The position numbers were made by a program, and so were the translations under genes. A model generated the notes under the pieces. It worked only from the letters and a program-made list of their open reading frames with translations. It did no database searches and was not told the DNA's origin. Shown one piece after another: positions 6,948 to 51,247 of a stretch of DNA of 64,000 nucleotides. Origin of the DNA: Candidatus Parcubacteria bacterium (GTDB lineage Bacteria; Patescibacteriota; Minisyncoccia; Phycocordibacterales; JAKAEA01); contig CAWDXL010000021.1 in assembly GCA_963806325.1 (NCBI GenBank), positions 18,624 to 82,623 of the forward strand, read 5' to 3'. How positions within the stretch are numbered: the stretch's first letter is position 1; each line of letters starts with the position of its first letter.

Positions 6948-7613
6948 ATGAATACTTCTATGCCTCAGCATTTTTTTAGAAAAAATAGTAAAACAAATTT
7001 CAGCGGCTTCACCCTGATTGAAACACTCGTGGCAATCAGCATTCTTGCTATTGTTATTGCGGGCTCGATGGCAGCTATTCAAGTGACCTTGAAATCGACT
7101 GTGTATGCCAAAGATGCCGTAACAGCAAAATTTTTAGCCGAAGAGGGCATAGAGTCAATTAGAAATATGCGCGATACAAATATTATCAATGGACTTCCAT
7201 GGATGAGCGGTATTGCCGACCCTGATGTTAGTGACGGCAGTGCCGGCAGTCCATGCGGAGATATTAGTGCCGAGACATCATCGAGCTATTGCTACATTGA
7301 TTCTATAAATAACACTGTTCCTATGGTATGCACCGGACAGGATGGTACATGTACAACGCCGTTAAATTTTGATAATGATACGAAAGATTATTTGTACAGT
7401 GATGACTCGGGCAATCCTACTCCTTCAAAATTTATCCGTTCAATACAAGTTGTCGGTGTTGATGGTATCAACGGATCTCCCGATGGTACGGCGGCGGATA
7501 CTTTTTCTGCTCGTGTTACTGTTACTATTACATGGGACGAAAATGGTGATCCCCAAACCTATTCCGTGATCGACTATCTGTATCCATGGTACGTCAGCAA
7601 CGATCAGGGTTAA
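6948..7613 (+). CDS. Minor pilin / pseudopilin-like protein
   Basis: The internal ATG at 6948 gives MNTSMPQHFFRKNSKTNFSGFTLIETLVAISILAIV. The longer ORF from 6858 would overlap the previous gene. Confidence 0.75.
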   Translation: MNTSMPQHFFRKNSKTNFSGFTLIETLVAISILAIVIAGSMAAIQVTLKSTVYAKDAVTAKFLAEEGIESIRNMRDTNIINGLPWMSGIADPDVSDGSAGSPCGDISAETSSSYCYIDSINNTVPMVCTGQDGTCTTPLNFDNDTKDYLYSDDSGNPTPSKFIRSIQVVGVDGINGSPDGTAADTFSARVTVTITWDENGDPQTYSVIDYLYPWYVSNDQG

Positions 7614-7634: not shown

Positions 7635-8132
7635 ATGTCACACACACCACTAACATTGCAGCACAAGAGGGGATTTACGCTTTTCTTCGCGATACTTATT
7701 GTTGCGCTGCTGCTTGCCGTCTCTACATCCATTTCCTTCCTCGCTTCAAAGCAGCTGCAGCTGCTGACGCTTGGCAATCAGTCAGAGCTCGCGTTTTATG
7801 CCGCGGATTCAGGTATGGAATGTGCTCTTTATTGGGACAAGATCAATACTGCGTTTGACGTTGATAATCCATCCGACGCAAGTCTTCATTGTGGTGGAGG
7901 AAATCCGATCACCGCAACATATACTCCTACTACTGCCAATGGAGAGATGTGGTCATTCACTGTTAGTCCCGACAATACTGCTTGTGCTGCGGTGACTGTT
8001 ACTAAATTTGATTATATTGATCCAAACACCCTTCAGCCGACTGGTGTGTGGGCTACTGATGTGGTGTCACGAGGCTATGACGGACCATGTAAAGGCTCAG
8101 AGCTCGAACGCGCCATCGAGACCGTCTATTAA
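7635..8132 (+). CDS. Atypical minor pilin-like protein lacking Glu5 (GspK/PilX-like position)
   Basis: The N-terminus ...KRGFTLFFAILIVALLLAV has the G/F cleavage context but no Glu at +5. It is the last gene of the pilin block. Confidence 0.6.
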   Translation: MSHTPLTLQHKRGFTLFFAILIVALLLAVSTSISFLASKQLQLLTLGNQSELAFYAADSGMECALYWDKINTAFDVDNPSDASLHCGGGNPITATYTPTTANGEMWSFTVSPDNTACAAVTVTKFDYIDPNTLQPTGVWATDVVSRGYDGPCKGSELERAIETVY

Positions 8133-8245
8133 AATAAAGATATACACATCAGCCACACCTCTCTGTTTTCTGATGGGGTATAATAGCTCTATAGTATGTA
8201 ATTGCTACAACCAAAATTTATTTATAAGCCTTCAGAAAAAATATA

Positions 8246-12328: not shown

Positions 12329-12346
12329 TTTCTTAGAAAACATATC

Positions 12347-15300: not shown

Positions 15301-17773
15301 TTGGTCAGGTGTATACTCCAATAATGTAGATCAGTACATTTCAACTGATACTCTCTATACTACAACCACGTATACGGTGACATGCTGGAACTCAGTTGGC
15401 TCTGATAGCGCGAGCACTGTTGTTACCGTTAAACCTCCTACAGTGCCATATACTCCTCCTACGGCAACTATCACTGCAAATCCGCAAAATGTTGCCTACA
15501 ACGGAACAGTTACATTGAGTGGAACAGTAAATGCTGGAGGTGATCCCGATTTATATTGTGAAATAATTGATGCTAATTATATGTGGCGCGCGTATGGATA
15601 TGGAATGGATGATTATTTAAGTACGTATGACAATCCTCCCGACCTTATTGGTCCTGACGCTAATGGTGCATATACTTATTCCCAGACAATAACACCATAT
15701 GATGATTGGGGAAATTCACGATCCTCAATTCAATATGAAATAACATGTACAAACTCAGTAGGGAGGATAAGTGCTACAACCACAGTAACTACATATATTC
15801 CTCCTGTTGTGACTCTTTCCGCAAATCCGACAAACTTTGTTGGTAGCGGCAATCCGACGCTGACATGGACGGTTGACGATGGCGGAGATCCAAATACAAC
15901 GTGTGCCGGCAGTGGCGGCTGGCAAGGTTCAGTCAACGCAGCGGGAGGTACATGGACATTGCCAAATACAATCACGCAAGCTACCACCTATACACTTATA
16001 TGTACAAATGGAGCCGGTGACTCAAATACTGCGACTGCCACGGTCACTATTGGTAATCCTCCAAATATTTCTCTTGCCGCCAATCCTTCTTCGGCAGAGG
16101 TCGGTTCATACTCGCAGTTAAACTGGACGCTCAATGATCAGGATGAATCAATCAGTGATTGCATTTTGAGCAATGACGCCAATGACTATACAACTGATTT
16201 TGCCTATTATCCTTACGAATACGGAAGTTATGACGATACTACTGGAAACTGGGTGTACTATGACGGCAGCCAAGAATCATATCTCCTCACCTCAACCGTT
16301 ACATACACTCTTACATGTATTAATCCGTATGGTTCTGATAGTGCCACTGCGACAATTACTGTTGCTCCGCCAACACTTCCTTCTGTTAGTTTAAGCGCGG
16401 ATCCGGCATTGATTTATTCCAATGATACATCTGATTTATCGTGGAACATCGACAATGGAAATGATTCAGCAACATACTGCTATCTGACTGATGATCAGGA
16501 TAATTTCTATACCACTATCGAATATTACGGTTACCAATATACAACATCTCCATATACCACGCCTCCACTTTCAGCAACGACAGAGTATACAATTACATGT
16601 ACAAACTCTGTTGGTACCGTGAGCGGCTCTGCAACGGTTACCGTTAATCCTCAGACTGATCCTCCATACGTCACACTAACCGCTGATCCAAATCCCGTAA
16701 GTGCTGGAGACACATCAACAATCTCATGGTCGGCAACGAATGAGCCGACGTCATGTACAGCCTGGGGTGATTGGCAGGGACAGGGAATGCCTGCAGCTGG
16801 ATCGTGGACGACTGGCCCGCTTACAACAACCACAACGTATAGTCTTTCATGCAGCAACGGTGCGGGTATCTCAAATACCGCGACTGTACAAGTTCCTCTT
16901 TTAAGCAATCAGCCAGCAGTCACACTTGTTTCAGATGAAGATCCAAACAATCCTATTTCGAGCGGCCAATCTGCAAACCTGAGCTGGACGATAGACAATA
17001 AAGGCGATCCAGATACCTCATGCAATTTAATTGACGACTATAATAGTTTTAATCAGCAAATTGAACCGCCAGCAACGCCGACCGGCACTATGTCTACCGG
17101 CTATCTGACGGCTGATACCACATTTACGCTCACCTGTACAAATAAATATGGCACAGCAAGTGCCGACACAACAGTGACAGTCAATCAGACATGTGTTCCT
17201 GCAGTCGGGGTGACCGCAGACAACTCCGTCACCGTTTTGGCTCCTCCACAGCGAATACTGACATGGTCTTCAAATTGTATGAATTCATGCTCGAGTGCTG
17301 ATTTCACGGTGCCTATTGATTTGACTACCGGCCTTGGTCAAACTTCCGGCTCTACATTTGTACCGGTGCCATCAATATCCGAAAGTCCAAAGAAATACAC
17401 CGTTATGTGCACCCCTCTCACAGGATCATCAGAATCTGGTTTTGCGTATGTTTATCACAACAACGATACTCTTCCAACCTGTTATCCTAAACAATATGGT
17501 TTGGCGGTCACGTCCGCTATTATAAAAACACCGATTACGTGGATATCGGCGAATATTGATTCTTCGGATACTGTGACTGGCTGGCAAGGAGATAATGGCT
17601 GCAACAGCGATACCTGCACATATTCTCAGGTTGGCTTGGTGCATATGTCTATGATCGTTTCATCATCGACTCCGACCGTGGTTAATGGTGTATCTACAGA
17701 TCCGAGTATGACGATTGAATGCCAGCCTACGCCGCTCAATATAAAACCAATCCCCGTTATTAAAGAATTTTAG
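12347..17773 (+). CDS. Giant surface protein, paralog 2 (same architecture, about 12 Ig-like repeats)
   Basis: An uninterrupted 1808-aa ORF. Signal peptide MMMKKLFLCIFAGIVALTGFAAIAQA. Its N-region is collinear with paralog 1 (e.g. FRYI(V/I)AGxI, YNEKDQLVG). It has a central hydrophobic pair and the C-terminal motif CYPKQ...CQPTPLNIKPIP. Confidence 0.85.
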   Translation: MMMKKLFLCIFAGIVALTGFAAIAQADTLPVPPQVFVKDITLDKTTYSAGSIVTGSFALENGTLGTNISGIMYHVSLTGDYNSNGLAGLYYDTKIYGPVFLTGSDTHKIIHFSYVLPKTFGGTGLGIQVRAYLATGDPLGWSDAFITVTGALSHASITDESLIVDTAQTSIPQRFTVLSGPTIYKNAHGALAVAISNTSKDSLSLVPHIVIYDRSVSGKILDVYNATSSVILASGGSRNLSFSLPTFDYQAGVYFGELNFLDAQGMARTVPVQFRYIIAGDILSISSITSPVSAVTKGDILNLTVTYAGAPYDIFTGETPGTTTADLAVNVYNEKDQLVGTYTERSMDFNSGASKILPVPIYKNAQALRVVATVTSGSKMITSYTADLSANYEEMHSQPGISENLFGLIAIVVAALIIIGLTIFFFMKKKGKYMLMTLLIMVGVGCIGYRPATAFTVTGTHFINVVWDYVTTGIWQPANSTDPYADGYEPFANNNPSYTLPWLHYASSGTGDPSEVPTVLINYPTDSDTLQPNQSFYITGSTYAAACENNPQDILVTITFNGETRTESFGDVNSYNGDHDVVNSPVTDFSVGPFTAPASGTSQAVIRVDNYTNVPGQSSNEKARIAFEKNTGLKPPTTSGATEGIDTTGGDTEGVQNIVVASSVPTVSLTASPSSVTSGGSSILTWTTTNSPTSCTASGDWTGSKTATGGTQSMSNLTTTKNYTITCTNSAGSGNDTATVTVTSPNIPVVSFSSNVTSYTTGGGNPLFTWSATNSPTSCTATGGTSSWDAVTATSGTSQQFGPISQTTTYTLACTNAGGVSAPVSITINVSDASQYWLATWINCNGPNSGNPNDTGQCYIKQTGSSAPSAVPNYDYVLQCQAGNDFIWDINGAYSCVSDTREYSISFSQISSQQASQYVECAPDMCSVASGPAVPPTVTLASQDPNLLPIDDGSVDSIHFTLDNGGDPNTTCVMNNSGGDRYWDNWSGVYSNNVDQYISTDTLYTTTTYTVTCWNSVGSDSASTVVTVKPPTVPYTPPTATITANPQNVAYNGTVTLSGTVNAGGDPDLYCEIIDANYMWRAYGYGMDDYLSTYDNPPDLIGPDANGAYTYSQTITPYDDWGNSRSSIQYEITCTNSVGRISATTTVTTYIPPVVTLSANPTNFVGSGNPTLTWTVDDGGDPNTTCAGSGGWQGSVNAAGGTWTLPNTITQATTYTLICTNGAGDSNTATATVTIGNPPNISLAANPSSAEVGSYSQLNWTLNDQDESISDCILSNDANDYTTDFAYYPYEYGSYDDTTGNWVYYDGSQESYLLTSTVTYTLTCINPYGSDSATATITVAPPTLPSVSLSADPALIYSNDTSDLSWNIDNGNDSATYCYLTDDQDNFYTTIEYYGYQYTTSPYTTPPLSATTEYTITCTNSVGTVSGSATVTVNPQTDPPYVTLTADPNPVSAGDTSTISWSATNEPTSCTAWGDWQGQGMPAAGSWTTGPLTTTTTYSLSCSNGAGISNTATVQVPLLSNQPAVTLVSDEDPNNPISSGQSANLSWTIDNKGDPDTSCNLIDDYNSFNQQIEPPATPTGTMSTGYLTADTTFTLTCTNKYGTASADTTVTVNQTCVPAVGVTADNSVTVLAPPQRILTWSSNCMNSCSSADFTVPIDLTTGLGQTSGSTFVPVPSISESPKKYTVMCTPLTGSSESGFAYVYHNNDTLPTCYPKQYGLAVTSAIIKTPITWISANIDSSDTVTGWQGDNGCNSDTCTYSQVGLVHMSMIVSSSTPTVVNGVSTDPSMTIECQPTPLNIKPIPVIKEF
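14335..17470 (+). repeat. Intragenic array of diverged Ig-like module repeats (about 12), interrupted by a Cys-rich non-repeat insert near 14830-15140
   Basis: It has the same two-Cys module consensus as paralog 1 and shares a 22-nt string with it (acaaattcgccgacatcatgta at 14411). Array edges are approximate. Confidence 0.7.
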
Positions 17774-17805: not shown

Positions 17806-19865
<2,060 letters not shown>

Positions 19866-25646: not shown

Positions 25647-25836
25647 TTCATTAAGATAAGTTCGAACGCTGTCCTAGAGGATTAGAGAGATAGACCTCAT
25701 TACTCATACTAACATGATTTATAAATGACACATCTATTTTACTTTGTCAAAATAGTATGTTAAACTACCCGGTAGGTAGTTGTTTGAAATAAACCATAAA
25801 CCGAGCTTTTGGCTTACTCACGAAAGGATGTGTCTC

Positions 25837-27752
25837 ATGCAGGTTACACCTCGCATCTACCAAAACGTGGCTGTGGAAGTTGCACTCAAGGGTCTGCGAG
25901 GCAGCCTCAGGCGCGCTCTCGTAGTCCTCGCGACAGGTCTTGGCAAAACCTTGACCGTCGCGTTCATCACCAAGAAATTCCGTCCCAAAAAGACGTTGTT
26001 TCTGGTTCACAACAACTTCATCCTCAAGCATGCCTTGGATGAGTTTCGCCTGGTTTTCGATGAGAAGACAACGATGGCGACATACAATGGCATGTCGAGA
26101 GATGGAGCAAAGGAAGCCGACATGGTTTTTGCTACCTGGCAGACCATGAGTAAAAACCTCAAGCGCTGGGCACGAAACCACTTTTGATCTCATTATTGTG
26201 GATGAAGCTCATCACTCGGAGGCTGATACCTATCGACCGGTGACTGCGTATTTCACTGGAGCGAAGCTTGGTATCACTGCTACGCCTGATCGACAAGACG
26301 ATGCGGACATCCGTGACGTCTTTGGTCCGGAAGTGATCAATATCACGCTCGAAGAAGCTATTGCCCGCGGGTGGCTGCCTCGAATCGAGTATCACGTCAT
26401 CACTGACGAGAGTCTCGACGAGAACATGCTTCAGAAAATCGTTGGAGAGATCCGCGAAGGTAAGAAGCGTTTTACGATGGCAGAAGTCAACCGTCGTATC
26501 TTCATCAAGAAGCGTGATGTTGAGATCACTCGGATCATCAACGGCTACGCCGAGAAGGCTGTCGTGTTCTGCAGCTCGATCACTCATGCTGAGCGACTGA
26601 GCCAGACGCTTGACCTTGCCGCAACCTTTCATTGCAAGAAGGGTAGCGGACAGAAAGAGACCTACAATCAAAATCGTGATACTCTCGAAGATTTGAAGAA
26701 TGGGAAAGTTCGTCGGGTGTGCGCAGTCAATGCCTTCAATGAAGGTGTGAATGTGCCAACCGTCGGACTCGTCAGCCTTCTGTCGGGTCACTGGAGTCCT
26801 GACGATTTTCCGGCAACAGTTGGGTCGCGGGCTTCGTCCTGGAAAGGACAAGCTCATCGTTCTCGACTTTGTCGGGAATCTCGAGCGCATTCAATTGGTG
26901 CTTGAGATGATGAACAAGGTTTCTGATCTTCATGAACAATATACTCCTAGGGATGAAATTGAACGTGAAGGTTATGTCCGGCAGAAGTTTGAAGTATCCG
27001 GAAAAGGATTTGAGTTTACCTTCTCTGACAAGGTAGTGGACTTAATGAAAGTTTTGCAGCATTGCGAACGGCAATTTTACCCGACATGGCAGGAAGCCAG
27101 TGGAGTAGCTGCAAAATTGGGGATTAGAACCAAGGAGGAATACTACAGGCGTTATATGGAAGATGAACGTCTCCCAAGTAGTCCTTCGAGCATGTATTCT
27201 GATTTCCCCGATTGGTCGATGTTTCTGCGAGGAGAAATGCGCAAAAATTATTACCCAACTCTGGATCAGGCAAGGAAGTCTGTACAGAAGTTGGGTATTG
27301 TATCTTATCCGGAATACAAGAGGCGTTTTAAGGAGGACTCGCGTCTTCCAAGTAATCCGAACAGAGAATACCGCAATTTTCCAGGCTATCGAATCTTCTT
27401 GGGGGTGAGCAAGAAAAAGTACAGGACATGGCAGGAAGCCAGTCGTGCTGCTTTAAAGCTTGGAATAGACTCTCTTTCTGAATATCGTAAGCGTCGTAAG
27501 GAAGATCTTGCTCTTCCAGGTGATCCCAATTTCACCTACTCTGATTTTCCAGGCTATCGAGTATTCTTCGGTAGAAATTTTCAGTCAAAATATCAGTCCT
27601 GCATTTTGGCTGCAAAAGCTGCAAGAAAATTGGGTATTCACTCGGCGAGTGATTACAAGCAGCGTTATAAGCAGGACCCACTCCTTCCTGGCAACCCTTA
27701 CGGGATGTATGAGGATTTTCCGGGCTGGCCCCAATTCCTTGGCAAGAAGTGA
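25837..27752 (+). pseudogene. SF2 DEAH-box helicase (type III restriction res-subunit-like) with a C-terminal 4x ~57-aa repeat; two frame breaks
   Basis: Motif I LATGLGKT, motif II IIVDEAHH (restored by shortening T4 at 26182-26185), motif VI QQLGRGLRPGK in the third ORF. The C-terminal repeats follow the pattern W/LxxA...KLGI.S..EY..R.KED.RLP..P...Y.DFPGW..FLG. Confidence 0.75.
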
Positions 27753-38637: not shown

Positions 38638-38708
38638 TGCGGGATCGTCTAATGGTAGGACATTTGCCTCTGGAGCAAAGTATCTTGGTTCGAGTCCAAG
38701 TCCCGCAG
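38638..38708 (+). tRNA. tRNA-Gln (CUG)
   Basis: Acceptor tgcggga/tcccgca (U1-A72, as in bacterial tRNA-Gln), D arm gtct-aatggta-ggac, anticodon arm tttgc-ctctgga-gcaaa, T arm cttgg-ttcgagt-ccaag. Confidence 0.88.
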
Positions 38709-40289
38709 CAAGCTTGGATTTTGTAAGCACAAAGCTTCAAAATCCTTTTGTTTTTCAACAGTATCTAGAGGTTCTAACCGTTCTTTTATCTGCTTAACAT
38801 ATTTTGCACACTCGGGCATTGGCAAAAGTGTTTCTGCCAAGTTAACTATAAGTTTTTTGTCTTTTATCAATAGGTTCGAACCTAGAGTCGAAAGTATCCG
38901 TCTTCTTGTCTCCATTGAGCCGTTTTTGAACTTATCTCGGGCATGAGTGATAAATAACAACATATCGTCAGCCGCTTCAAGCCATTTCTCAACTCTTTGG
39001 TCGGTATTGCCTAATGCCTTCTTGAAATTATCTTTTTCCTCTTGAGCTCTTGTCTTTCTTTCAAGAAATTCTTGCTCTGTAAGCTCACCATTGGCTCTCA
39101 TGTCGATTAAGTTATCAATTTTGCGTACAGCGGCGTTATAGCCCTTCTGCTGGCTTTCCAACACTGAAGTTCTGCTTGTTGATTCTTTCTCGTGTTCTGC
39201 CTTAAACCACTTCATCGCAAAAGTATGAAACTCTGGCGGGATTTCAAGTGAATCAATCGTTAGGTCAATTTGCTTTTCAAGCTCATCTTGCTCTATAGAC
39301 CCCTGAGTACACTGTGGGTTTTTTCTTTTGGTACAGTGATAATAAATGTAGATATGAACATTACCATTTTTCTGTTTCTTCATTTTTGTTTCGGCAGTAA
39401 TCATACAACCGCATTCAGCACATTTCATCATACCGATAAAATCAAAAATATGTTTTTTCGGTCTAGGTCTACCTTCTCTTCCAAGTAGAAACTGAATTTT
39501 GTCGAACTCTTCCTCCGTCATCAAGGGTTCGTGAGTGCCTTTATGCCATTTGCCACTACCAACTGGATATTCAAAAATTCCATATCCAAACGGACGAGTA
39601 AGAATATTGTATATTGTGCTTCTACTCATCGGTTTACCTTGAGGTGTTTTAAATCCCCATTCTTTATTTACAATGTTTAATATTTTTGGGGGAGTGTATG
39701 TTCCTGTAAGCATGAGGTCTATCATTCTACGAAGGAGTGGAAATCTTTCTGTGTCTGTTTTAATACCCTTAATACCTTTTTCATCGGTAAAATTTAAATG
39801 ACCTAAAGGTGCAGGACCAGGGAATACTCCTAGACCAGCTTTTTGTCCTAAACCTCTTTTTACATCTCGTCCTTTTTTAGCAGAGTCATACTGAGATTGA
39901 GAAAGAGCCATCTGTAACATCCAAATACCTTCAGGTGTATTGTCGAAATGATAGGCAACAAATTTTAAATCCTGAATTTGATTTGTGCGAACCATGTAAG
40001 TTAATGATGCTGCGTCAATTTCATTTCGAGAAAGTCGGTCAGGATGCCAGACAATTAATCCTCGTCTATCTCCTGAACCAATTTTTTCAAGCATACCTGA
40101 AAAGAGTGGACGGTTGTAGGGTATGAAAGCACTTTTACTTTCCTCTATAAATTCAATATCAAGGTCGGGAAATGTTTCAAGAATTTTCGTCTTTTGAGCT
40201 GGAATTGACAATGCTTGTCGTTCTTTATCTTCACTAGATTTGCGAAGATATGCATAGTATTTAATTTTATTTTTGTGTTCAGATTTCAT
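38649..40289 (-). CDS. Large serine recombinase (phage-type integrase)
   Basis: 546 aa. N-terminal resolvase domain with YAYLRKSSEDKE (catalytic Ser) and LIVWHPDRLSRN. It also has a recombinase domain, a Zn ribbon (CAECGC...YYHCTKRKNPQC) and a long coiled-coil C-terminus. The last ~20 codons read antisense through tRNA-Gln. Confidence 0.9.
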   Translation of the reverse strand: MKSEHKNKIKYYAYLRKSSEDKERQALSIPAQKTKILETFPDLDIEFIEESKSAFIPYNRPLFSGMLEKIGSGDRRGLIVWHPDRLSRNEIDAASLTYMVRTNQIQDLKFVAYHFDNTPEGIWMLQMALSQSQYDSAKKGRDVKRGLGQKAGLGVFPGPAPLGHLNFTDEKGIKGIKTDTERFPLLRRMIDLMLTGTYTPPKILNIVNKEWGFKTPQGKPMSRSTIYNILTRPFGYGIFEYPVGSGKWHKGTHEPLMTEEEFDKIQFLLGREGRPRPKKHIFDFIGMMKCAECGCMITAETKMKKQKNGNVHIYIYYHCTKRKNPQCTQGSIEQDELEKQIDLTIDSLEIPPEFHTFAMKWFKAEHEKESTSRTSVLESQQKGYNAAVRKIDNLIDMRANGELTEQEFLERKTRAQEEKDNFKKALGNTDQRVEKWLEAADDMLLFITHARDKFKNGSMETRRRILSTLGSNLLIKDKKLIVNLAETLLPMPECAKYVKQIKERLEPLDTVEKQKDFEALCLQNPSLLRDLDSNQDTLLQRQMSYH

Positions 40290-40473
40290 ATTTTTGTTGG
40301 GTCAGAAACGCCAAACGGACGATTCTGGTTGACCCAATACACTTGCCCCCGAAGGAGTAGTTTTATCGGCAGAATCGCCCGTTTGGCACGACAAAGCAAC
40401 AAAAAACCTTCAGGTATGCAATCTGTATTGGGTCAACAAGTTAATTATACTCTAATAATTTTTACAGCCAAGC

Positions 40474-40920
40474 TTACATTGTGAGCGGTTTTCCCTCGCC
40501 AATAATCTCGACATCAGACTCTCCATGCTCGTTTACGATAGTAATCTTCCATTGGTCGAATTCATCCATGAAGTTCCAGTTAAGCTCTCGATATCGCTTA
40601 GCTTCCTTGAGAGTTTCAAATATGCCGCATGGCTCAAATTCTGGTTGAAAAGCATTTGCATTTTTGTGGTAAAGCTTGAAATGCGGAGATGATTTATATG
40701 CATTGAAGCCTTTCTCTTCAAGTTCGTTAAGTTCAATAGTTTTATTAATACTTTCACGAATCAGTACAGAAATTACGTCCTCGCCCTCATCATAGAGGCA
40801 GTCAACCACTTGCTCCAATTCTGCTTCACTCAATTCTCGGTCAATTTCTTGTTCAGCTTCGCACTGAATCATTTCTTCGGTAATTGGATACACTACTTTT
40901 TCTTTGTTTTGATTTTGCAT
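40474..40920 (-). CDS. Hypothetical acidic protein (element cargo)
   Basis: 148 aa with a strongly Glu/Asp-rich N-terminal half. No motif recognised. Confidence 0.5.
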   Translation of the reverse strand: MQNQNKEKVVYPITEEMIQCEAEQEIDRELSEAELEQVVDCLYDEGEDVISVLIRESINKTIELNELEEKGFNAYKSSPHFKLYHKNANAFQPEFEPCGIFETLKEAKRYRELNWNFMDEFDQWKITIVNEHGESDVEIIGEGKPLTM

Positions 40921-40935
40921 GTTTTAATTATTGTT

Positions 40936-42147
40936 TTAACCTAAGTCATATCTTTTAAATTCTTGTAATTTTTCCTCAACAACTGCAATTCCACGAGTAT
41001 AAGGAATATCTTTCAGGAGAATTGCAGAGTCTCTAATTTTTTCATCAAGACGCAGTCCACAACTTTTATCACTCCATAATGCATTCAGCTTATTTTTAAC
41101 TCTTCGTACACCAAATTCGTTTACAAGAAAATACAAGCCAAAATTGATTAGAGTTTTATTAAGAGTATGAGCATTTCTTTTGCCAGTTCTTTCTCTCTGA
41201 ATAAGAGTATTTAGGACATCCTCAGAAGAAATATCTATTTTGAATGCTAATTGATTAGCAGGTTTATCGGTAATGTCAGTCCAAGTTTTTAGGATTGCCT
41301 TTTTCCACAATACTTCACTAAAGATTGACTCGAATGTAATTACTTCAGGTTTATTAGGCAGAAGCTTTGAGACAAAACTGTATACACTTTTTTGACTATT
41401 GAATCTAATCTCAAGCCTCAATACTTGTTCGGTCTTACGCAATTTATCTTGAAGCAGACCGTACTCACTCTTCGTTTTATCTTTATCAACAGAGATATTT
41501 CTTGTTTTCTCAATGTCCTTCATTTTGTCATAGAAGATGATGTTATGAGAGCTTGTATAGAAATAAAGGCTCTCGCCATCATTTCTGTACTCTCGTGTGT
41601 TTACTTCCATTCGTCTTCCTAAATCCGCCTTTTTAAGTTCAGCCAATACATCTCTTACTGTCATTGGATAAGGTAGCAAAATGTTTTTGCCAAAATGAAC
41701 CTTTGTAGCAATTGAGTTTTTGATGGCTTTTTCGCTTGCGTTTATCCCCATTGTTGCGAGCTTCCGTTGCAGTAAGACAATAAGAGACTTAAAACAATTC
41801 TCTGAGTCTATAATTTCCTGGAGGTTGTTTCCGTAGAGTATTTTCGGAATAGAAAACTCTATATGAAGATAATAATTTAGTTCACCATCCTCAAATCGTC
41901 GGTATGCAGTAAGGCGGGGTTTATAGATGTCTTCCTGCCTGTCTTCAAAAGTTGAATTTTGAACATACTTCTTGAATGATTTTTGATAATTGAATGTACT
42001 AGGAATTTCTTTTCCTTGCTTGATAACTAACTCGGGATAAAACAACTCAGGTTTTACGACCTGAAACTCTGGGTATTTTATCTTTAGACTAACGGTATCA
42101 AGCATAAGCGTTAGCCTATTTGCGTTGCTTTTTATGTTCATATCCAT
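40936..42147 (-). CDS. Putative replication initiation protein (resembles the phage/plasmid gene II/X Rep family)
   Basis: 403 aa. The spaced pattern LDTVSLKI..., LHIEFSIPKILYGNNL, VHFGKN, ESLYFYTSSHNIIFYDK, VLRLEIRFN matches my recollection of that family (SLPK..G.N / YDK / LR.E). This is not verified by search. Confidence 0.4.
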   Translation of the reverse strand: MDMNIKSNANRLTLMLDTVSLKIKYPEFQVVKPELFYPELVIKQGKEIPSTFNYQKSFKKYVQNSTFEDRQEDIYKPRLTAYRRFEDGELNYYLHIEFSIPKILYGNNLQEIIDSENCFKSLIVLLQRKLATMGINASEKAIKNSIATKVHFGKNILLPYPMTVRDVLAELKKADLGRRMEVNTREYRNDGESLYFYTSSHNIIFYDKMKDIEKTRNISVDKDKTKSEYGLLQDKLRKTEQVLRLEIRFNSQKSVYSFVSKLLPNKPEVITFESIFSEVLWKKAILKTWTDITDKPANQLAFKIDISSEDVLNTLIQRERTGKRNAHTLNKTLINFGLYFLVNEFGVRRVKNKLNALWSDKSCGLRLDEKIRDSAILLKDIPYTRGIAVVEEKLQEFKRYDLG

Positions 42148-43534: not shown

Positions 43535-43636
43535 ATTACTTCACTTTTATATTTTATTCAAATTACAAAGCGGACTTCTCTTTACCCTCAAAATATGTTT
43601 AAATTGAACCACAACTAAATACGGTATAAGCCTAAA

Positions 43637-43774
43637 CCAGTGAGAAATCACTGGCATGGCATAAAATCCGCACGACACAAGAAAACCCGTTATCAGGGCG
43701 TGTCGTGCGTTGCTGGGAGAAATCCCAGCATGACCTTCGGGTCACCTGGTAGCGGGCTTTGTTGTATCCGCTAC
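43637..43774 (+). ncRNA. Cluster of five consecutive stable hairpins (candidate structured RNA or single-strand replication origin)
   Basis: The five hairpins are ccagtga-GAAA-tcactgg, cgcacgacac...gtgtcgtgcg (10 bp), gctggga-GAAA-tcccagc, tgacc-TTCG-ggtca and gtagcgg...ccgctac. The GNRA and UUCG tetraloops appear only when read on the plus strand. Confidence 0.5.
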
Positions 43775-43799: not shown

Positions 43800-44369
43800 A
43801 TGGACACGACACATGTCGGTAAGAAGAGATTTTATAAACGATGGTGGTTCTGGGTCTTAGTGATTATAGTACTTTTTATAATTATAGGCTCAAGTGGTAG
43901 TTCAACTACTCCAACTAAAGTTGCGAGCACTGATGCTACTACTACCTCTCAGCCCGCTCAACAGCAACAACAGGTCTATAAAGTTGGAGACAGTATAAAA
44001 CTCGGTGATTCAATTTTAACGGTTAATAAAATCTCAACATCATTTGGGGGACAATATACAAAGCCTTCTGAAGGTAATGAGTGGATAGATTTGAATATTA
44101 CTATTCAAAATACAAGTTCATCCCAGCAGTATGTAACAACAATGGGTCAAATGTTTGTTCGAGATGGTCAAGGTAATAGCTATCAAGTTGCTGTTACGGA
44201 CAAGCAACTAGAAAATCCGAGTGCTGGTTTAGATGGAGCAATTATTGCTAACAGTAAACGGACGGGCTGGGTCGGCTTTGAGGTTCCTAAGGGTGCTACA
44301 GGGCTTCAATTCCAATACAATGGCAGTTTGTGGGGTGGTGGCACAGTTCTTGTGAATCTGACTCAATAA
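43800..44369 (+). CDS. Membrane-anchored DUF4352-like protein
   Basis: N-terminal TM helix (WWFWVLVIIVLFIIIG), a Thr/Ser/Gln linker, then a beta-rich domain (GDS..L.......V..................G..W(I)...(I)T(I)QN.....................G..Y......GW(V)GFEVP) as I recall for DUF4352. Confidence 0.5.
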   Translation: MDTTHVGKKRFYKRWWFWVLVIIVLFIIIGSSGSSTTPTKVASTDATTTSQPAQQQQQVYKVGDSIKLGDSILTVNKISTSFGGQYTKPSEGNEWIDLNITIQNTSSSQQYVTTMGQMFVRDGQGNSYQVAVTDKQLENPSAGLDGAIIANSKRTGWVGFEVPKGATGLQFQYNGSLWGGGTVLVNLTQ

Positions 44370-44378: not shown

Positions 44379-44403
44379 AACCGCTGAAAAGCGGTTTTAT
44401 TTA
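44379..44403. terminator. Bidirectional hairpin terminator between convergent genes
   Basis: aaccgc-tgaaaa-gcggtt, flanked by T-rich sequence when read on either strand. Confidence 0.6.
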
Positions 44404-45296
44404 TTCCTTGGGGGATATTTGGTCTTTATTATTTCAAGCTGTTCTTTACTTGATGCAACGATTCTTTCGCCAGAATGCAAAGCTGTACGTTGATTTATAG
44501 GCTCAACATTTTCAGCTGGGATATCAATGTAGCAGTCTTCATTGATTGTCCAACCTGCCAATAAGGCAAGGTCTTTAGAAAGAGGAAGACTTACTTCGGC
44601 ATCTTTATAAATTAAACCAGGCTGACTTCCAATTGCTTTTGCTCCATACTTTTTTATTGATTCTGGACGTACCACGACAAAGGGGTCATCTGATGTAATA
44701 AAGTCGATGTCGCCATTCTTACGCTTTAAGATAGCCCACTTCATATCAAAAATAATTTGTGCAGTAGAAACAATTTGAGGTATTAAATCTGCGGCATGTT
44801 GCTCATCAAAATCTTTAAGACCTTCATCGAGTTCTTCAAGTGTTATCGATTTATCGTCGCCTGAAGATGGCATTATACTCGCAAGTTCACGAGCTTCAGG
44901 ATTACGGCGATATTCTTCCTGCCATTCTTGCATAGTTTCTTTTAACCTCTCAAACATATTTCTCATGGATTCTCGGTGCGGTCTTGTGCGGTGCAGCATC
45001 GCAGCAGTGAAGATTGCAATCTTTGCTCGCTCGTCAACAGTAAGAGGTATTCCCTTGGAAATCTTATTGGCAAATATGTCAGCAAATGCTCCTTCCATAT
45101 TAGCCAAAGTATCTTCTACGACAACGCTTTTCTCACCATTTTTCAAAGTAAGGCGGTAAAAGTGTGTTTCGACAAGAATATTTTCAGGTCTAATATTGAA
45201 TATTTTATCGCTGGTATCTAATACCCAAACGTATCCGTTTTTGTCGGTAAAATTCTCAAGATAACAGCGTGGTACTGTGTGATGTCGTTTCTGCAT
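44397..45296 (-). CDS. DUF4238-family protein
   Basis: 299 aa. The N-terminus MQKRHHTVPRCYLENFTD matches the characteristic HH.(V/I)P..YL..F opening of DUF4238. Confidence 0.6.
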   Translation of the reverse strand: MQKRHHTVPRCYLENFTDKNGYVWVLDTSDKIFNIRPENILVETHFYRLTLKNGEKSVVVEDTLANMEGAFADIFANKISKGIPLTVDERAKIAIFTAAMLHRTRPHRESMRNMFERLKETMQEWQEEYRRNPEARELASIMPSSGDDKSITLEELDEGLKDFDEQHAADLIPQIVSTAQIIFDMKWAILKRKNGDIDFITSDDPFVVVRPESIKKYGAKAIGSQPGLIYKDAEVSLPLSKDLALLAGWTINEDCYIDIPAENVEPINQRTALHSGERIVASSKEQLEIIKTKYPPRNK

Positions 45297-45447
45297 GACT
45301 TAATTATAACACCTTAACAAATACTGGTTTTTATGGCAAAATGAGCCTTAACAAAAGATTGGACGATATAGATAAAAATTTCTACTAAATGACTGATACA
45401 TCTCTTTTATTCTTCTTTTCCTAGCTAATTTCCTTTCGGGGTTACTT

Positions 45448-45941
45448 TTGTTTGCTATCGCCTCAATTATCTTGCCTTTTTATGCCAGATTGTGGAAAAA
45501 GCCCCACATGAGAATTATTCCTTTTGATAGAAGAAAGAAGTACTTTGAATTAACTCAATCCGAAGATAAACAATGGGAAGCAACCTTAAAATTATTGATT
45601 CAAAATAGAGGAAATAACACAATAGATAGGTTTTACTGGGAAATATTTATTGAGAAAGATATTTTTAGTAATGCTCAACCTATTGTTTCAAATATTCAAG
45701 AGTTTTCAATCGAAAAGAAGATTTATCAAAGTATGTGCGGCTATACGGTTTCATACAAAAACCAATCTTTGCTCTCGAGGGTATTGATTTTCCTTATGAG
45801 ATAAAAATAAAGATGAAAGATAGAAAAGAAACCAAACTAATGTACTATTTTAAAACTGACCAAGGTCAAATACCATTTTATTCATGGCTTGCAGTGTCAT
45901 ATGATAAGTTTCAATTTCTGAAATCAATTTTAATAAAATGA
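45448..45941 (+). CDS. Hypothetical protein, with a frame break near 45740
   Basis: ORFs 45448-45804 and 45735-45941 overlap and are collinear. Very AT-rich. No motif recognised. Confidence 0.4.
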
Positions 45942-46159
45942 AAAAAATAAAAGAAATTATCAAGTATGGAATCATTAACTGGCGGAATTTCTGGTTTCTG
46001 CTAAGTATTTTTGTGACTTCTTATTTTGCCTTTCATTTAGAAAAAGTTATTTTTGATATATATCCAAATCTAATAATAAAAGTTTCTAGCCATAATTTAA
46101 TTCTTCTAGCTACCTTTTTATTTGTCTTATTTTATTTATTTTCTTTATTCATCCAATAA
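45938..46159 (+). CDS. Small two-TM membrane protein
   Basis: 73 aa with two hydrophobic helices. It overlaps the previous gene by 4 nt. Confidence 0.45.
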   Translation: MKKIKEIIKYGIINWRNFWFLLSIFVTSYFAFHLEKVIFDIYPNLIIKVSSHNLILLATFLFVLFYLFSLFIQ

Positions 46160-46179
46160 AACAACTCAGAAAACAAAAA

Positions 46180-48526
46180 TTGCGTAGGCAACCATCCTGG
46201 GTATTTTATTCTTATTGGAGTTTAGTTGTAGCACCAATTTTGGGGTCAATTTACTTTTTTTATTTTTATCACAAATTATTACATATAACACTATCTCAGC
46301 CATGGTGGTTCGGTATTATTCTAGGTATTGCAACATTTTTTACGGGTTATTTTTCTAATGAAAATAAAATTGATTTAGCTTTTACAAAATTTGCCGCTGG
46401 TTCTGTTGGAATTGCCGATGATAAATTAAATTTTAAGAAAACAGCAGAACATACAGCAAAGGGTATATCGGGATTAAAAAATTATATAAATGTTGCCCGA
46501 ATATATGGGATTTTGGGTTCGGGGAAATCCTCATATATAAGAATGGTGATTGAGTATCTAGACAATAACAGCACTTTATATACCTATATCTCTTTAACAG
46601 AGACAAATGAAGCTAAGGATTTTTCCAGTCTCTTTGCAGAAAGATGGCTTGAAACCTTGCGGAAATGTATCCTAAGATTGATATTACTTCCTATCTACCT
46701 TTATGTATTCAATTCTGTAGAGAATGGGGGTCATGGAATATATTCTGAAATCTTAAATTTTGAGCTTTTATTGAAAAAGGACTCATTAAACAGAAGCCTT
46801 TTTTCATGACCAATTTACTCGAAAGAAGTAAACCAAAATTTGTTTCTAAGAATGTCGCTCAGTTGTTTGGGAATATTCCCAAAATCAAAGAAAATCTGTG
46901 GGTAATTGTAATTGATGAAATTGAACGTGCACAATTGGATGAAATATATAGAGTAGTTGAAATTATTGAACGATTTAAAAATGAAGGTAGGTTGGGTTTT
47001 TCCTATAAAACTATGTTTATTCTTTGTATATCTGAACCAGATTTTGAAAACTTATTAAAAACGTATTCTGAAAAAGATAATCTTGCCTGGTCTATCAGAA
47101 CTTTTTTTATGACCCAAAAAGTATTACTCTGCCCATTTTTCTTCCACCTATTGAGCCACAATTTAAATTTAACTATATTTTAAATCTATTAAAACAGGTT
47201 AAGGATTCTGAGGGTATTGATAATCTAAATCTAAGCGATATTTCTTTTGTTGTTGGGATTAATCCATCTCGACATTTCCTAGACAATCCAAAAGAGGCTT
47301 TAAGTTTTATTGTCAGTAGATTAATGGATGAGACTCCAAGAGTAATCGATAGAACAATTCAAACCCTATACTTCTTTTATGCTGCTTTCCGAGACCAGAC
47401 TGGTATTCCGCAAAAAAGCTCTATAAGATTTAGCGATATCTTAGCAATTGAGTATATAAAAATAAAATTTCCATTTCTCATTGATTTTTTTGCTAAAACT
47501 ATTCACAAGCTTGTTGCTCAGACACAATCTGATGAATTAGCCTCGTGGATTTTTAAAAATGAACTCAAGGATAAAAAGATGGGTCTTATGGAGTGGATTA
47601 AGAATGAGACAGGCACTGAATTGACTCCAAGTGAGCAGGAAGATGTTAAAAAATTTGTAAGTTTAGTAATGAACTATTACTTTGATTTTCTAAAGAATGA
47701 TGTGAATTTTAAAGTTAAATATGATTACATAGGTACAACGTCTTATCCTGAAACAATGTATGACCTTCTAACCCTAGTTGCTGATAACATTGATACACCT
47801 TATAAAAGAAACAGTAGAGTTTATTCTCAACATAAAAGCAATCCAGATTATAATATTAAGTCACTAACCGATATTGATTTATTAGGGTATTCAAGATTCT
47901 TGAATGATTTAAATGATACAACTATTCAACTACACTTTGATATAGTTGAAGCCATTTCTGAAAGAATTCTTAGTGGAATAATAAAATCAGAACCGTTAAA
48001 TACAGGAGACACATTATTTGATGAGGCTGTTTTTCAATTTTCATATCAACTTTTAGTGATTATTGAAAATGATAAAAGCGAGGCGGTTTCTTCCCCAGAC
48101 TTAAATAAAGTTTTTGAATATTTTAAAAATTTACTTTCATCGAATAAAGTTACAATTGGTGCAAAATATATTATTTTAAATTCATTTGCTAATAATCATA
48201 GGGGTGGGGGTTCTTCCATTCATTTACGATATGATAGTGCATTTCAGAAACTCCTAAAGTATTTCCGTAATGATATTTTGGATTTGATAGAACTTGTTTT
48301 TGCTGAAGCTAACCATAGATATTTATCTGAGAGAGAAGAAATTTATAAACATGAAGAAAACTTCTTCTATCTTTTGTATCAGGGCTGGTCTGGCTACAAA
48401 GATGCACATGATGAAATTGATAATATTCGCTCTATCGCAGCACATGGACTAGAGAAGTATCCAGGAGCAATAAAATTATATTGGAATGTATATCCTTTTA
48501 AAAATGGCTGGGAAAGTTGGGAATGA
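46180..48526 (+). pseudogene. Transmembrane KAP-family P-loop NTPase, fragmented by at least 3 frame breaks
   Basis: It has two N-terminal TM helices, Walker A GILGSGKSSYI and Walker B-like WVIVIDEIERAQLDEIYRVVEIIERFKN. An alternative frame at 47110-47320 reads KSITLPIFLPPIEPQFKFNYIL...LMDETPRVIDR, which links the pieces. The helical C-terminal region runs 47324-48526. Confidence 0.65.
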
Positions 48527-48540
48527 TTTAATAGAGGGGG

Positions 48541-48795
48541 ATGTATTTTTTTGGAACAAATATTAATGGAGCACTTCTCTATATGCCATTGGATACTTTG
48601 ATAGATATTACTAATAAGTCAGTATTAAAAGATGATGAGGAAATGCAGAGAAGAATTACTTATTGGAAGAAAATGTCTACGAAACAACAATTCAAAGATT
48701 TACAGCTCAAGGATGACAAAACAACCTTGAAGGCAGTTTTAATAGCGAGAGGGTATCTAAAAGCTCCTGAAGAGATAGAGAATTTAAATAAATAA
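48541..48795 (+). CDS. Small hypothetical protein
   Basis: An 84-aa ORF directly after the KAP NTPase. No motif recognised. Confidence 0.4.
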   Translation: MYFFGTNINGALLYMPLDTLIDITNKSVLKDDEEMQRRITYWKKMSTKQQFKDLQLKDDKTTLKAVLIARGYLKAPEEIENLNK

Positions 48796-48864: not shown

Positions 48865-50300
48865 TTATAAATTATATCTTTGAATACAAACTTCAGCTCT
48901 TACTCTTGGTAAATTGAGCCTACTCCATTCAGTCATTCCGCCTTTAAGGCTGTATGCTTCTATGCCCGCCTCACGAGCTTTAAATGTGGCAATCTTGCTA
49001 CTATTCCCACGGCGACATACAAAGATAACCTTCTTGTTTTTATATTTTGAATCTTTAAGTTGCTTGTCATTTAAACCATCTTCAATATGTTCTGAAGCAG
49101 GAGCATGAAAGTCTTCATATTCTTCAGGTCTACGAGTGTCTATGAGAATTATATCTTCATTCGCTTCGACAGTATTCTTCTCCTTAATATTTTTCCAAAG
49201 TTTAGAAGGCTCATCTCTAAATAAAAGTTTATATGTTTCTTCCGCAGTAATTTCAGGAATCTCAGATTTAATTGTTTTAACTGAGTTGATTGATTTATTT
49301 TCTAATAACTCCTCATTAAAAATCTGTGGAAATTCAGATTTATCTAGGTACTCAAAGTACTCATCAATGTAAGGTAGTGGGCTGTCAGGACAAATAAAGA
49401 CGGCAATTTTCTCTTGGTTAGTATTTAAATTTTCCTCAGATAAATATTTAAGTAGACCTGCTAATGCGAAACCTGAACTGGGTCCAGCCATAATGCCAGC
49501 TCTGCATAATTCCAAGCTTTTCTTAAATGATTCTACTGTTCCAATTTCCTCAACCGTATCTGTATATTTCTTCCAATCAAAAGCTATCTCTTGTAAAAGG
49601 TTTTGTGTTCGTACACCTGGTACAGGATTATTAGGCTTTCTGGTAACTCCAACAATTTTAATATCTTTATTTTTATCTTTTAGATATTTAGCAGTACCGA
49701 CTATCGTTCCTGTTGTTCCAAGACCTACACATAAAATATCAATCTTGCCCTGAGTTTGTTCCCAGATTTGTGGGGCAGTCCATTTTTCATGAGCTTGTGG
49801 GTTTGCTTCATTATCATATTGCCCAGGATTAAACCACTTATTTTCTTTAGCCAAACTTTTGCTTTATAGATGCCGCTAGTCGGGTCATGTGGGTCAGGAC
49901 AAATCGGCTCATGATTTACTATTACTTCTGTGCCAAGGATTCTTAATAATTTTAATTTTCCTTCGCTTACTTCATGAGAAACAATTGCCTTAGTTTGAGG
50001 AATACCAAACGCTCTACCAATAACAGCGAGGGAAAACACAGTATTGCCAGAAGAGTTTTCAATAATAGTATTTATTCCTGACAAATCCTTTTCTAAAAGC
50101 ATGTTATATGCCGGTAAAGACTTAACATTTCCAAGAGGTAAAAAGTTCATGAGCTTAGCAAAAATCCGAATACCTTTCTCTCTAAATGGATTCAGACTAT
50201 CAGGTAATTCAACCAATGGTAAAGGTGGATTATTATCGGGATTTAGAAAATCTCGAATTGCATTCTTGCCTGCAAAAACATTTAACTGGTTAGAGTTCAT
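48865..50300 (-). CDS. PLP-dependent cysteine-synthase-fold enzyme fused to a C-terminal rhodanese domain; frame break near 49860
   Basis: The N-terminal piece has the PLP-lysine context (LPLGNVKSLPAYNML) and SSGNT. The second piece has GLGTTGTIVG and a PSSG loop. The C-terminal rhodanese domain has the active-site loop CRRGNSS. Confidence 0.7.
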
Positions 50301-50332: not shown

Positions 50333-51247
50333 TCACCAAATCGTTCGGTAATCAGAAGCTTGTGCAACGTACACTTTATGAAGTTGCCAAAGCTTTTCCA
50401 AACGCTTTTGAGAGTCTTTAGGAGTATCAATAAGCTTTTGATGTATGTCTTCAAATAACTGGATATTCTGAGATTCTAGTTTTGTAATATCCAACGCTCC
50501 GCCCTGTCTATCAATTTCAGCTAGGTATGGAGAGTCTTCCAAAAATCCAATGAGCTTTTCAGTTGGTATATTCTGTCTAATAAAATCTTTATCTGATTCT
50601 GACCTTACTTTATTTCCAACAACAAACAGACTGTTTTGCTGTTCCAGCTTCTTCAGCAAGTTCTAGGTAGTGCCTAAATACCTCTAGACTACGTTTTGTT
50701 GGCTCAACAACAAGACAGATCAAATCAAATTGAGCGTGAAGTGTATTTGCAAATGCATCGACACCTGCAACCATGTCGGCTATGACATAGCATCCTTATC
50801 AATTAAATGGCTAAGGATATTTTCAAATATAGCGAGATTGTTGTGGTAACAGCTCGCACCAATTTCTTCTTCGTCATATGTGCCTACTGCAAAGAGATAT
50901 AAATTATTATCTTTAACGAAATAATCCTTAATCGGGCTATTTTCAATATTTTTTAGGATAATAAGATTGGACTTTGAAGAGGGAGGAGTAGTTTTTCTAA
51001 ATGCGCCCAGCTTGGCTATATCAGTTCTTTTGCCAAGCAATTGCTTTTTAATATTTTTTACTACGTCAGGATGTGATAAATGTTTCGAGACTGGTATCAC
51101 ATCAAAACCTAATAACTCAGGCATATGGATATTTAAATCCGCATCAAAAACAGCAACCACTTTATTCTGTTGTTTAACATACTCAGCAAATAAAGCTGAT
51201 AATGTTGTTTTACCTGAGCCTCCTTTTCCTACAAATGCAATTTTCAT
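50333..51247 (-). CDS. CooC/MinD-superfamily P-loop ATPase (metallochaperone-like), with two frame breaks
   Basis: N-terminus MKIAFVGKGGSGKTT (deviant Walker A). The middle frame reads YVIADMVAGVDAFANTL...LICLVVEPTKRSLEVF. The C-terminal piece reads LFVVGNKVRSESD. Confidence 0.65.

Follow-up and report, generated by a model that had tools for sequence, protein, structure and literature searches.

A Patescibacteria serine-recombinase island carrying a DUF4238 gene and a frame-split gene for a candidate anti-phage membrane KAP NTPase

Gene content of the island

The window analysed here is a stretch of 64,000 nucleotides from a Candidatus Parcubacteria assembly (contig CAWDXL010000021.1), and the relatives of its GatA are from Patescibacteria/Paceibacteria, in agreement with the CPR-like genome inferred in the original prediction, which was made from the DNA letters alone. 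The GC content of the window falls from ~0.45 to 0.30-0.38 between 39 and 55 kb, and the following features were located:

38638-42147, minus strand: left part of the island
38638-38709, plus strand: tRNA-Gln
38649-40289, minus strand: large serine recombinase, adjoining tRNA-Gln
Between 38638 and 42147, in the left part of the island: 148-aa ORF
40936-42147, minus strand: 403-aa protein with weak Rep_trans likeness
43629-43744, plus strand: LOOT RNA (Rfam RF03000; 78 bits, gathering score 46.4)
43800-44369: DUF4352 membrane-protein gene, starting 56 nt downstream of the LOOT RNA
44397-45296, minus strand: intact DUF4238 gene (299 aa), monocistronic and divergent from ORF1 and the KAP gene
45448-45941, plus strand: ORF1, whose stitched product of ~163 aa has a hydrophobic helix at its N-terminus
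45938-48795, plus strand: KAP gene, 956 codons once frame-corrected

With the serine recombinase adjoining tRNA-Gln, the proposal that a DUF4238 gene adjoins a membrane KAP NTPase on an integrative element was borne out, and we regard the DUF4238 and KAP genes as two independent cargo genes of this island. A direct-repeat search found no att repeats, whose lack is expected for serine recombinases, and a scan for promoters and terminators gave results at or below chance level. The most AT-rich stretch of the window was confirmed at 46-48 kb (GC 0.30); the DUF4238 gene itself has 39% GC.

A single KAP gene in place of a four-gene operon

[quoted passage not shown] However, tblastn and profile matches showed that the KAP fragments tile homologue positions 1-949 in alternating frames, with the 73-aa ORF (45938-46159) aligning to the N-terminus and the 84-aa ORF (48541-48795) to the C-terminus of homologues of ~950 aa. 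Intact homologues of this length (e.g. P0001 and P0022) are single ORFs in 54 of 56 Patescibacteria loci. Judged from these alignments, the KAP fragments and the two small ORFs are pieces of a single gene of ~950 codons.

The reading frame was then corrected by frameshift-aware alignment against four homologues. The resulting protein shares 48% identity with P0001 and keeps 32 of the 33 invariant and 45 of the 47 near-invariant family columns (77/80), and none of its 956 codons, in DNA of 30% GC, is an in-frame stop. When stitched, it matched PF07693 with 29.8 bits (gathering score 20) over profile positions 22-290 of 293, and precomputed PF07693 matches are present in many homologues; the single unstitched fragments gave no PF07693 match in Pfam, and the KAP assignment thus holds for the stitched protein and fails for the fragments. 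The corrected sequence encodes a complete NTPase with all motifs present, an outcome in favour of the original prediction.

ORF1, formerly the ~165-aa protein, consists of two overlapping ORFs, 45448-45804 (118 aa) and 45735-45941 (68 aa), linked through a single frameshift near 45730. It had no Pfam or PADLOC match, a search of 5.8 billion proteins returned only its own fragment from the same contig, and it was absent at all 56 KAP homologue loci. Its stop codon TGA (45939-45941) overlaps the KAP start codon ATG (45938) as ATGA, and this overlap, together with the separate reading frames of the sequence as given, is what a four-gene operon has in its favour. Nevertheless, the alignment of the 73-aa and 84-aa ORFs to the ends of single-ORF homologues refutes it for both, no small neighbour gene is conserved across the 56 loci, and ORF1 lacks any homologue. 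We therefore consider the four-gene operon very improbable; its small membrane partners are a frameshift artefact, leaving one KAP gene and one orphan ORF.

Architecture of the KAP protein

The homologues share a common layout of four N-terminal TM helices, a KAP P-loop domain and an all-helical region of ~550 aa, which was mapped onto the window gene (all features on the plus strand) as follows:

45938-46159, 46180-46809, 46806-47183, 47324-48526 and 48541-48795: ORF pieces of the KAP gene as assembled
45986-46353: four TM helices (TMH1 45986-46039, TMH2 46097-46152, TMH3 46198-46269, TMH4 46303-46353)
46507-46931: core of the P-loop domain, from Walker A to Walker B
46507-46533: Walker A, GILGSGKSS
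46591-46647: family signature, SLTETNEAKDFSSLFAERW
46902-46931: Walker B, VIVIDEIERA
47140-48795: C-terminal region, ~550 aa, all helical, conserved in the family and including the 84-aa ORF; motifs TTSYPE, NNHRGGGSSIH (48191-48223), EENFFYLLYQGWSG (48353-48394) and LYMPLDTL (at 48577)

Two N-terminal TM helices had been predicted, but four were seen in the hydropathy of the homologues and in the AlphaFold model of P0001 (pLDDT 85), in which helices 10-46, 50-84, 89-112 and 118-136 precede an alpha/beta P-loop domain followed by an all-alpha C-terminus; TMH1 and TMH2 fall within the 73-aa ORF. Walker A (GxxxxGK[ST]) and Walker B (hhhhDE) are both present, 43 homologues share their G, K, D and E residues without exception, and no hydrophobic insert lies between the two motifs.

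The C-terminal region was delimited by sequence conservation within the family and the secondary structure of the P0001 model. A Foldseek search of the PDB with this model gave matches confined to the P-loop part (AAA+/STAND P-loop domains), and a sequence-profile search of the PDB returned nothing meaningful. The C-terminal region, which has no known relative, is presumed to be the sensor or effector part of the protein.

Origin of the frame-breaking indels

The KAP gene as assembled falls into five or more ORFs, separated by 7-9 single-base indels. At least three splits at homopolymers had been proposed; several indels do lie at runs of T5, G5, A5 or T7, while 4 of 9 lie elsewhere.

46115-48546, plus strand: frame-breaking indels, at ~46115-46127, 46660, 46725 and 46762-46771
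Further indels, plus strand: 46806 plus 46829 (a compensating pair), 47079-47100, 48512-48524 and 48543-48546

One explanation is that the gene is a genuine, recently inactivated pseudogene, derived from a defence or cargo gene, broken by slippage indels in AT-rich DNA and non-functional in this genome. The indel density (~3 per kb) is ~20-30 times that of the remainder of the contig, since its 2.9 kb contain 7-9 indels and the other ~61 kb yielded at least six, and seven of those in the gene fall within 1 kb, whereas the adjoining island genes (recombinase, Rep-like, DUF4352 and DUF4238) are intact and no such damage is seen in the left part of the island. Fragmented copies also occur in two other assemblies (L006 and L039), and an independent 1.4-kb Logan contig (run ERR10755936), which ends before the KAP gene, is identical to the window across the overlap, indicating that the assembly is not uniformly bad. 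The damage itself, however, consists of indels only, with zero nonsense codons and the conserved columns kept, a pattern unlike neutral decay, and every indel is a single base, as is typical of read or consensus error. In addition, two frameshifts divide ligA, which is also on this contig, into three ORFs, and splits likewise affect a helicase gene, a cysK-rhodanese gene and a CooC-like gene. LigA is essential, and its frameshifts would not be possible in a viable cell. Because an essential gene is split on the same contig, the KAP indels more probably reflect consensus errors in an indel-prone assembly than true decay, and genuine inactivation keeps a considerable but lesser probability. The window copy is not usable as assembled; intact homologues such as P0001 and P0022 exist.

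The DUF4238 gene

The predicted 299-aa DUF4238 protein on the minus strand was confirmed as an intact ORF. It starts with MQKRHHTVPRCYLENF, contains the N-terminal stretch HHTVPRCYLENF at 45249-45284, and gave a full-length match to Pfam PF14022 (144 bits, E 8e-42), covering positions 1-280 of the 281 in the profile. The PADLOC model DUF4238-Pers gave a partial match (E 1e-12, 46 bits), the better of its two stretches being the C-terminal third, and a single-sequence AlphaFold model was unusable (pLDDT 40). DUF4238 alone has been found to protect against T7 as a single-gene system from the P2 hotspot (Rousset et al. 2022; PMC9122126). Similarly, the window protein is full-length, has the N-terminal motif HH.VP..YL..F and is encoded on a mobile island, but it shares only ~23% identity with the pro483 DUF4238 protein (from a P2-like phage), the one with which it was compared, in an alignment spanning 95% of its length.

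Distribution and gene neighbourhoods of the KAP family

The family is strongly conserved, with 33 invariant columns, and is confined to Patescibacteria; no relatives were found among the viral contigs of IMG/VR or the plasmids of PLSDB. Large serine recombinases occur no more than 10 kb from the KAP homologue in 7-8 of ~50 loci (raw count) and directly adjoin it in four, and at one locus (L058) the KAP gene comes after hsdR-hsdM-hsdS. In a small informal comparison at the locus level, the 150 nearest neighbours (within 1.7 kb) of KAP homologues included at least 11 DNA-methylase family matches, among which one protein may count twice, as well as two GmrSD, two AbiEii, HpaII and IS200, whereas 75 proteins of the far flanks were housekeeping-like. 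A tRNA gene lies within 500 nt of the homologue in eight loci against ~2.5 expected (Poisson P ~0.004), the expectation being our own rough estimate from ~45 tRNA genes per ~1-Mb genome. In line with the original prediction that homologues would occur near defence or mobile genes, restriction-modification (RM), recombinase and tRNA genes lie beside them, and no conservation of the small ORFs with KAP genes was seen.

LOOT RNA was found in four other KAP-family loci. At L032, phmmer and Pfam revealed a DUF4238 gene, for which a BLASTP screen had given no match, in an operon-like arrangement with a second, soluble KAP NTPase; this pairing hints at a functional link between KAP and DUF4238.

Proposed function of the KAP gene

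We infer that the KAP gene encodes a single-gene, membrane-anchored NTPase directed against phages or mobile elements, and it probably belongs to a kind of anti-phage gene described only recently. This role and the mechanism below are drawn by analogy from EF_KAP, PifA and Tmn, whereas the gene structure, family, architecture and associations come directly from the analyses above. The four helices would anchor the protein in the membrane so that both of its termini, like the P-loop NTPase domain, are cytoplasmic, and the helical C-terminal region may sense an infection cue. ATP binding and hydrolysis at the P-loop could then switch its state, probably as an oligomer, and the switched protein may perturb the membrane or block phage replication.

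Alternatively, the family may have no immune role and be a membrane NTPase of mobile elements (maintenance or exclusion) or serve a Patescibacteria-specific envelope or host-attachment function. The restriction to one phylum and the strong sequence conservation would suit such a role, as would loci (L001 and L003) with no obvious defence neighbours beside the KAP homologue and a defence-HMM record that holds nothing beyond an 18-bit PifA match at the P-loop; KAP NTPases have also been proposed in general as regulators of membrane-associated complexes, in work cited in PMC13552941. Nonetheless, the distribution is patchy and the neighbourhoods are variable, often directly beside RM systems, recombinases and tRNAs, which is typical of defence cargo and not of envelope genes, and antiphage KAP proteins of the same layout provide an experimental precedent (PMC13552941). 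A non-immune function is accordingly judged less likely, and the anti-phage reading is preferred.

As a whole, we favour with moderate confidence an explanation that combines two cargo genes, one KAP gene split by indels (assembly error being the likelier cause) and a putative anti-phage NTPase. More tentatively, and with somewhat less than even confidence, the 4TM-KAP family may be an unrecognised, Patescibacteria-specific single-gene immune protein with a new C-terminal sensor/effector module, carried in small tRNA-targeted islands that recurrently combine the same parts. Such islands would bring together an integrase, RM systems and a LOOT RNA immediately preceding the gene of a small membrane protein, joined by DUF4238 at two or more loci.

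Patescibacteria (CPR) are uncultured episymbionts with reduced genomes, and their phage defences are poorly charted beyond RM systems. If immune, the KAP family would add to these a phylum-restricted candidate immune gene of integrase islands, and it would supply the KAP-NTPase defence class, itself newly recognised, with a fresh C-terminal module. It is also worth cautioning that what looks, in an indel-prone assembly, like a large gene in an operon with small membrane partners may in fact be debris from frameshifts.

Comparison with known defence systems

Tmn, reportedly described by Gao in 2020 as a YobI-family transmembrane NTPase, was the system to which the locus had originally been likened. 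Both are single-gene, membrane-anchored P-loop NTPases, the helical C-terminal region would suit a diverged Tmn system, and Tmn, which has helical arms, couples ATP turnover to a membrane-level antiviral state. However, Tmn belongs to another NTPase family, YobI, and two TM helices interrupt its P-loop domain at a point after Walker A (PMC13001434), whereas here the four helices precede that domain with no insert between Walker A and B. Pfam assigned the protein to KAP_NTPase, and NCBIfam gave no informative match for the family. PADLOC scans of the stitched protein (E up to 0.1) and five intact homologues (E up to 0.01) matched PifA only, at 18 bits, with the Tmn model assumed to be included in PADLOC v2. 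The analogy with Tmn therefore fails as a matter of membership, and a diverged Tmn system is extremely unlikely.

PifA of the F plasmid, which excludes phage T7, is the founding prokaryotic member of the KAP group. The window gene resembles it in the KAP-family P-loop, in carriage on a mobile element and in a tie to membrane effects, but the PADLOC match covers ~55 residues at the P-loop, and full-length likeness was rejected. PifA has no TM helices, and the KAP family is described as having four TMH outside the P-loop domain (PMC13001434), an arrangement found in the window gene, where four helices lie ahead of the P-loop.

The closest parallel is with KAP NTPases that carry TM helices and a C-terminal region of unknown function; these protect against phage, require both Walker B and the C-terminal region for protection, and are genetically linked to serine recombinases (PMC13552941). 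The locus had been proposed as a possible variant abortive-infection system, a reading that gained no support here; EF_KAP, the sole KAP protein examined for this mode, is reported as not acting by abortive infection (PMC13552941). Compared by description, EF_KAP places one of its two TM helices at the N-terminus and the other within the KAP domain, and its tail measures 322 aa, whereas in the window family four helices precede a KAP domain free of any insert, the tail reaches ~550 aa, the serine recombinases seen near some members are large and not small, and the range is confined to Patescibacteria. Like EF_KAP, the window gene is a single gene with TM helices, a KAP domain with intact Walker motifs and a long C-terminal region devoid of recognisable domain or structural relative, and by this analogy it appears to fit the recently described antiphage class of TM helices, KAP NTPase and region of unknown function.

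Most of the supposed operon is one KAP gene

An ORF listing of the window, whose GC minimum (0.30) lies at 46-48 kb, reproduced the ORF coordinates of the original prediction:

44397-45296, minus strand: DUF4238 ORF, 299 aa
45448-45804 and 45735-45941, plus strand: pieces of ORF1, in two overlapping frames
45938-46159, plus strand: 73-aa ORF
46180-46809, 46806-47183 and 47324-48526, plus strand: KAP pieces
48541-48795, plus strand: 84-aa ORF

The plus-strand ORFs had been read as a four-part operon of a KAP-family NTPase with small membrane partners. The KAP assignment was borne out: no single fragment from the window reached the Pfam threshold for PF07693, and a 783-aa version stitched by hand scored 29.8 bits (cut-off 20) over nearly the entire profile. 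The stitched protein retrieved homologues of about 950 aa (45-50% identity, 100% query coverage), and all those bearing a taxon name were from Patescibacteria. Their roughly 170 extra residues correspond exactly to the flanking small ORFs of the window, the 73-aa ORF aligning to homologue residues 1-65 (TM helices 1-2) and the 84-aa ORF to residues 867-947 or thereabouts, indicating that the supposed partners are frameshift debris. The family profile matched the three frames in order (positions 1-132, 17-279, 245-397, 372-873 and 877-949). Frameshift-aware alignment against four homologues located single-base indels at about 46115-46127, 46660, 46725, 46762-46771, 47079-47100, 48512-48524 and 48543-48546, with 46806 and 46829 as a probable compensating pair. 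Of 56 loci retrieved from public assemblies, 54 carry the homologue as a single uninterrupted ORF. The correct description, judged from these alignments, is therefore one 956-codon gene (45938-48795) and one upstream ORF. For the latter, ORF1, whose frame breaks at about 45730, no homologues were found anywhere.

Origin of the frameshifts

The copy is broken in the assembly as given, and its frame-corrected sequence, which is free of in-frame stops, keeps 32/33 invariant and 45/47 near-invariant family columns; this is not the pattern that neutral decay should produce in DNA of 30% GC. On the same contig the essential ligA is split into three ORFs, and a helicase (25780-26905), a cysK-rhodanese gene (48865-50300, minus strand) and a CooC/ParA-like ATPase gene (50333-51247, minus strand) are also split. 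These split genes therefore show that indel errors are present in this assembly, generally along the contig and beyond the KAP gene. We lean towards assembly error as the source of the KAP-gene indels as well. Recent and real inactivation of the gene is a less probable reading, though one with an appreciable chance: indels are much denser in the KAP gene (about 3 per kb) than elsewhere on the contig, runs of at least five identical bases underlie only some of the breaks, and the island's left half is free of them, whereas the stop-free frame, the conserved columns and the split genes elsewhere, ligA included, speak against it and for assembly error. An independent Logan contig of 1.4 kb, from run ERR10755936, is identical to the window, but stops short of the KAP gene.

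The three ligA ORFs (NAD-dependent DNA ligase, 17806-19584, plus strand) overlap, with breaks at about 18140-18216 and 19093-19240; the first falls in a G-rich stretch, GGGGAGGGGGTTGGGGGTGGGG, at about 18157-18178. Downstream of the split helicase, the Pfam "integrase repeat unit" (INT_rpt, E 3.5e-30) occurs four times in a 333-aa ORF (26751-27752, plus strand).

A small family with a distinct architecture

The AlphaFold model of P0001, an intact homologue, was built from 43 aligned sequences and was confident (pLDDT 85, pTM 0.71). In it, residues 10-136 form four N-terminal membrane helices, an alpha/beta P-loop domain spans about 180-400, and the remainder of the protein, beginning at 405, is all-helical. 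In a Foldseek search of the PDB, the P-loop part alone matched (AAA+, ORC/Cdc6, RFC, plant NLRs and Avs4, E about 1e-3), and a PDB profile search gave no match outside this part. PADLOC returned a sole match to the PifA P-loop (18 bits), and NCBIfam none. When 1.84 billion cluster representatives were searched exhaustively with the family profile, just 262 proteins were recovered (E up to 1e-3), and most full-length representatives match nearly the whole of it; by this search, the family has few members and a sharp boundary. At locus L058 (6001-8812) it occurs as two overlapping ORFs of 432 aa (TM helices and P-loop) and 506 aa (C-terminal region), and several database representatives span profile positions 10-434 or 448-948 alone; the split in these cases is either natural or a frameshift or truncation artefact.

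Genomic setting of the family

The host is a bacterium of the Patescibacteria/Paceibacteria type, judging from GatA. The KAP gene sits in a low-GC island that starts at a tRNA-Gln gene, where a large serine recombinase and a Rep-like gene are also located; a search for att repeats gave none. Elsewhere in the window, pilin-like genes with N-terminal methylation motifs (6335-7613) are followed by two giant ORFs of 1360 and 1808 aa (8246-17773, plus strand), the 1360-aa product having no Pfam match. Features of the island, with LOOT RNAs (Rfam RF03000) from other KAP-carrying loci, are:

38638-38709, plus strand: tRNA-Gln, left edge of the island
38649-40289, minus strand: large serine recombinase, the last ~60 nt of its ORF overlapped by the opposite-strand tRNA-Gln gene
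43629-43744, plus strand: LOOT RNA, full-length
L005:10933-11059, L049:4849-4971, L020:1929-2048 and L032:13839-13960: LOOT RNA, full-length

No conserved neighbour of the KAP gene was found across the family loci. Mobile and restriction-modification (RM) machinery recurs around it, and the predicted defence-island flavour holds in this respect. A large serine recombinase lies within 10 kb in 7-8 loci, directly adjoining in four; a complete type I RM operon (hsdR-hsdM-hsdS) stands directly upstream in L058, and L005 carries an RM pair and a recombinase. Within 1.7 kb, the 150 closest neighbours gave at least 11 DNA-methylase family hits, among which one protein may count twice, and also include GmrSD, AbiEii, HpaII, IS200 and GIY-YIG. 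A set of 75 proteins more than 6 kb away is housekeeping-like (for example ribosomal proteins, EF-Ts and histidinol dehydrogenase). In eight loci the KAP gene has a tRNA gene no more than 500 nt away, against about 2.5 expected from a rough, unmeasured figure of ~45 tRNA genes per ~1-Mb genome. The family was not found in IMG/VR or PLSDB. In L049, a group I intron (1229-1468, plus strand, 97 bits) overlaps the 3' end of an opposite-strand serine recombinase ORF (1343-3112, minus strand).

LOOT RNA scored 60-84 bits (gathering score 46.4) in the window island and at four further KAP-carrying loci, out of about 52 others. A co-oriented gene for a protein starting with a TM helix follows 56-70 nt downstream in the window, L005, L049 and L032; in L020 the RNA runs at its 3' end into the first downstream ORF, and a TM-helix protein comes next. 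Four of the five loci have an integrase no more than about 3.5 kb away, of the serine type in the window, L005 and L049 and of the tyrosine type in L020. This orphan RNA may belong to Patescibacteria integrative islands, as a component or as a 5' regulator.

The DUF4238 assignment proved sound, with a full-length Pfam match of the minus-strand ORF (144 bits) and a PADLOC match to DUF4238-Pers (E 1e-12). A second locus combining the family with DUF4238 is L032. Its 4TM-KAP gene (8009-10804) has a gene pair about 640 nt downstream (11487-13780, minus strand), made up of a soluble KAP NTPase of 437 aa (PF07693, 44.6 bits) and, about 8 nt after it on the same strand, DUF4238 (84.6 bits). The pair, which also neighbours the LOOT RNA of that locus, may represent a two-gene KAP-DUF4238 unit. 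The two DUF4238 proteins are distant relatives (phmmer E 3.6e-5).

Comparison with known systems

DUF4238 protected E. coli against T7 as a single gene (Rousset 2022, PMC9122126). The original prediction had likened the NTPase to Tmn, which forms a ring or pore. Tmn is currently assigned to the YobI family of NTPases, explicitly set apart from KAP, and has two TM helices within the P-loop domain (PMC13001434); the window protein lacks that arrangement and the link fails. DUF4238, KAP and the defence-island setting stand from that prediction, and the small partners and Tmn do not. According to a 2026 report, KAP NTPases that combine TM helices with a C-terminal region of unknown function are potent antiphage proteins. 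They depend on both Walker B and that C-terminal region, and serine recombinases served as the bait in finding them; one of them, EF_KAP, was reported not to work through abortive infection (PMC13552941). Since these KAP NTPases are the best match in kind, the window gene is best filed as a putative new, phylum-specific member of the antiphage TM-KAP class, with its function ascribed by analogy.
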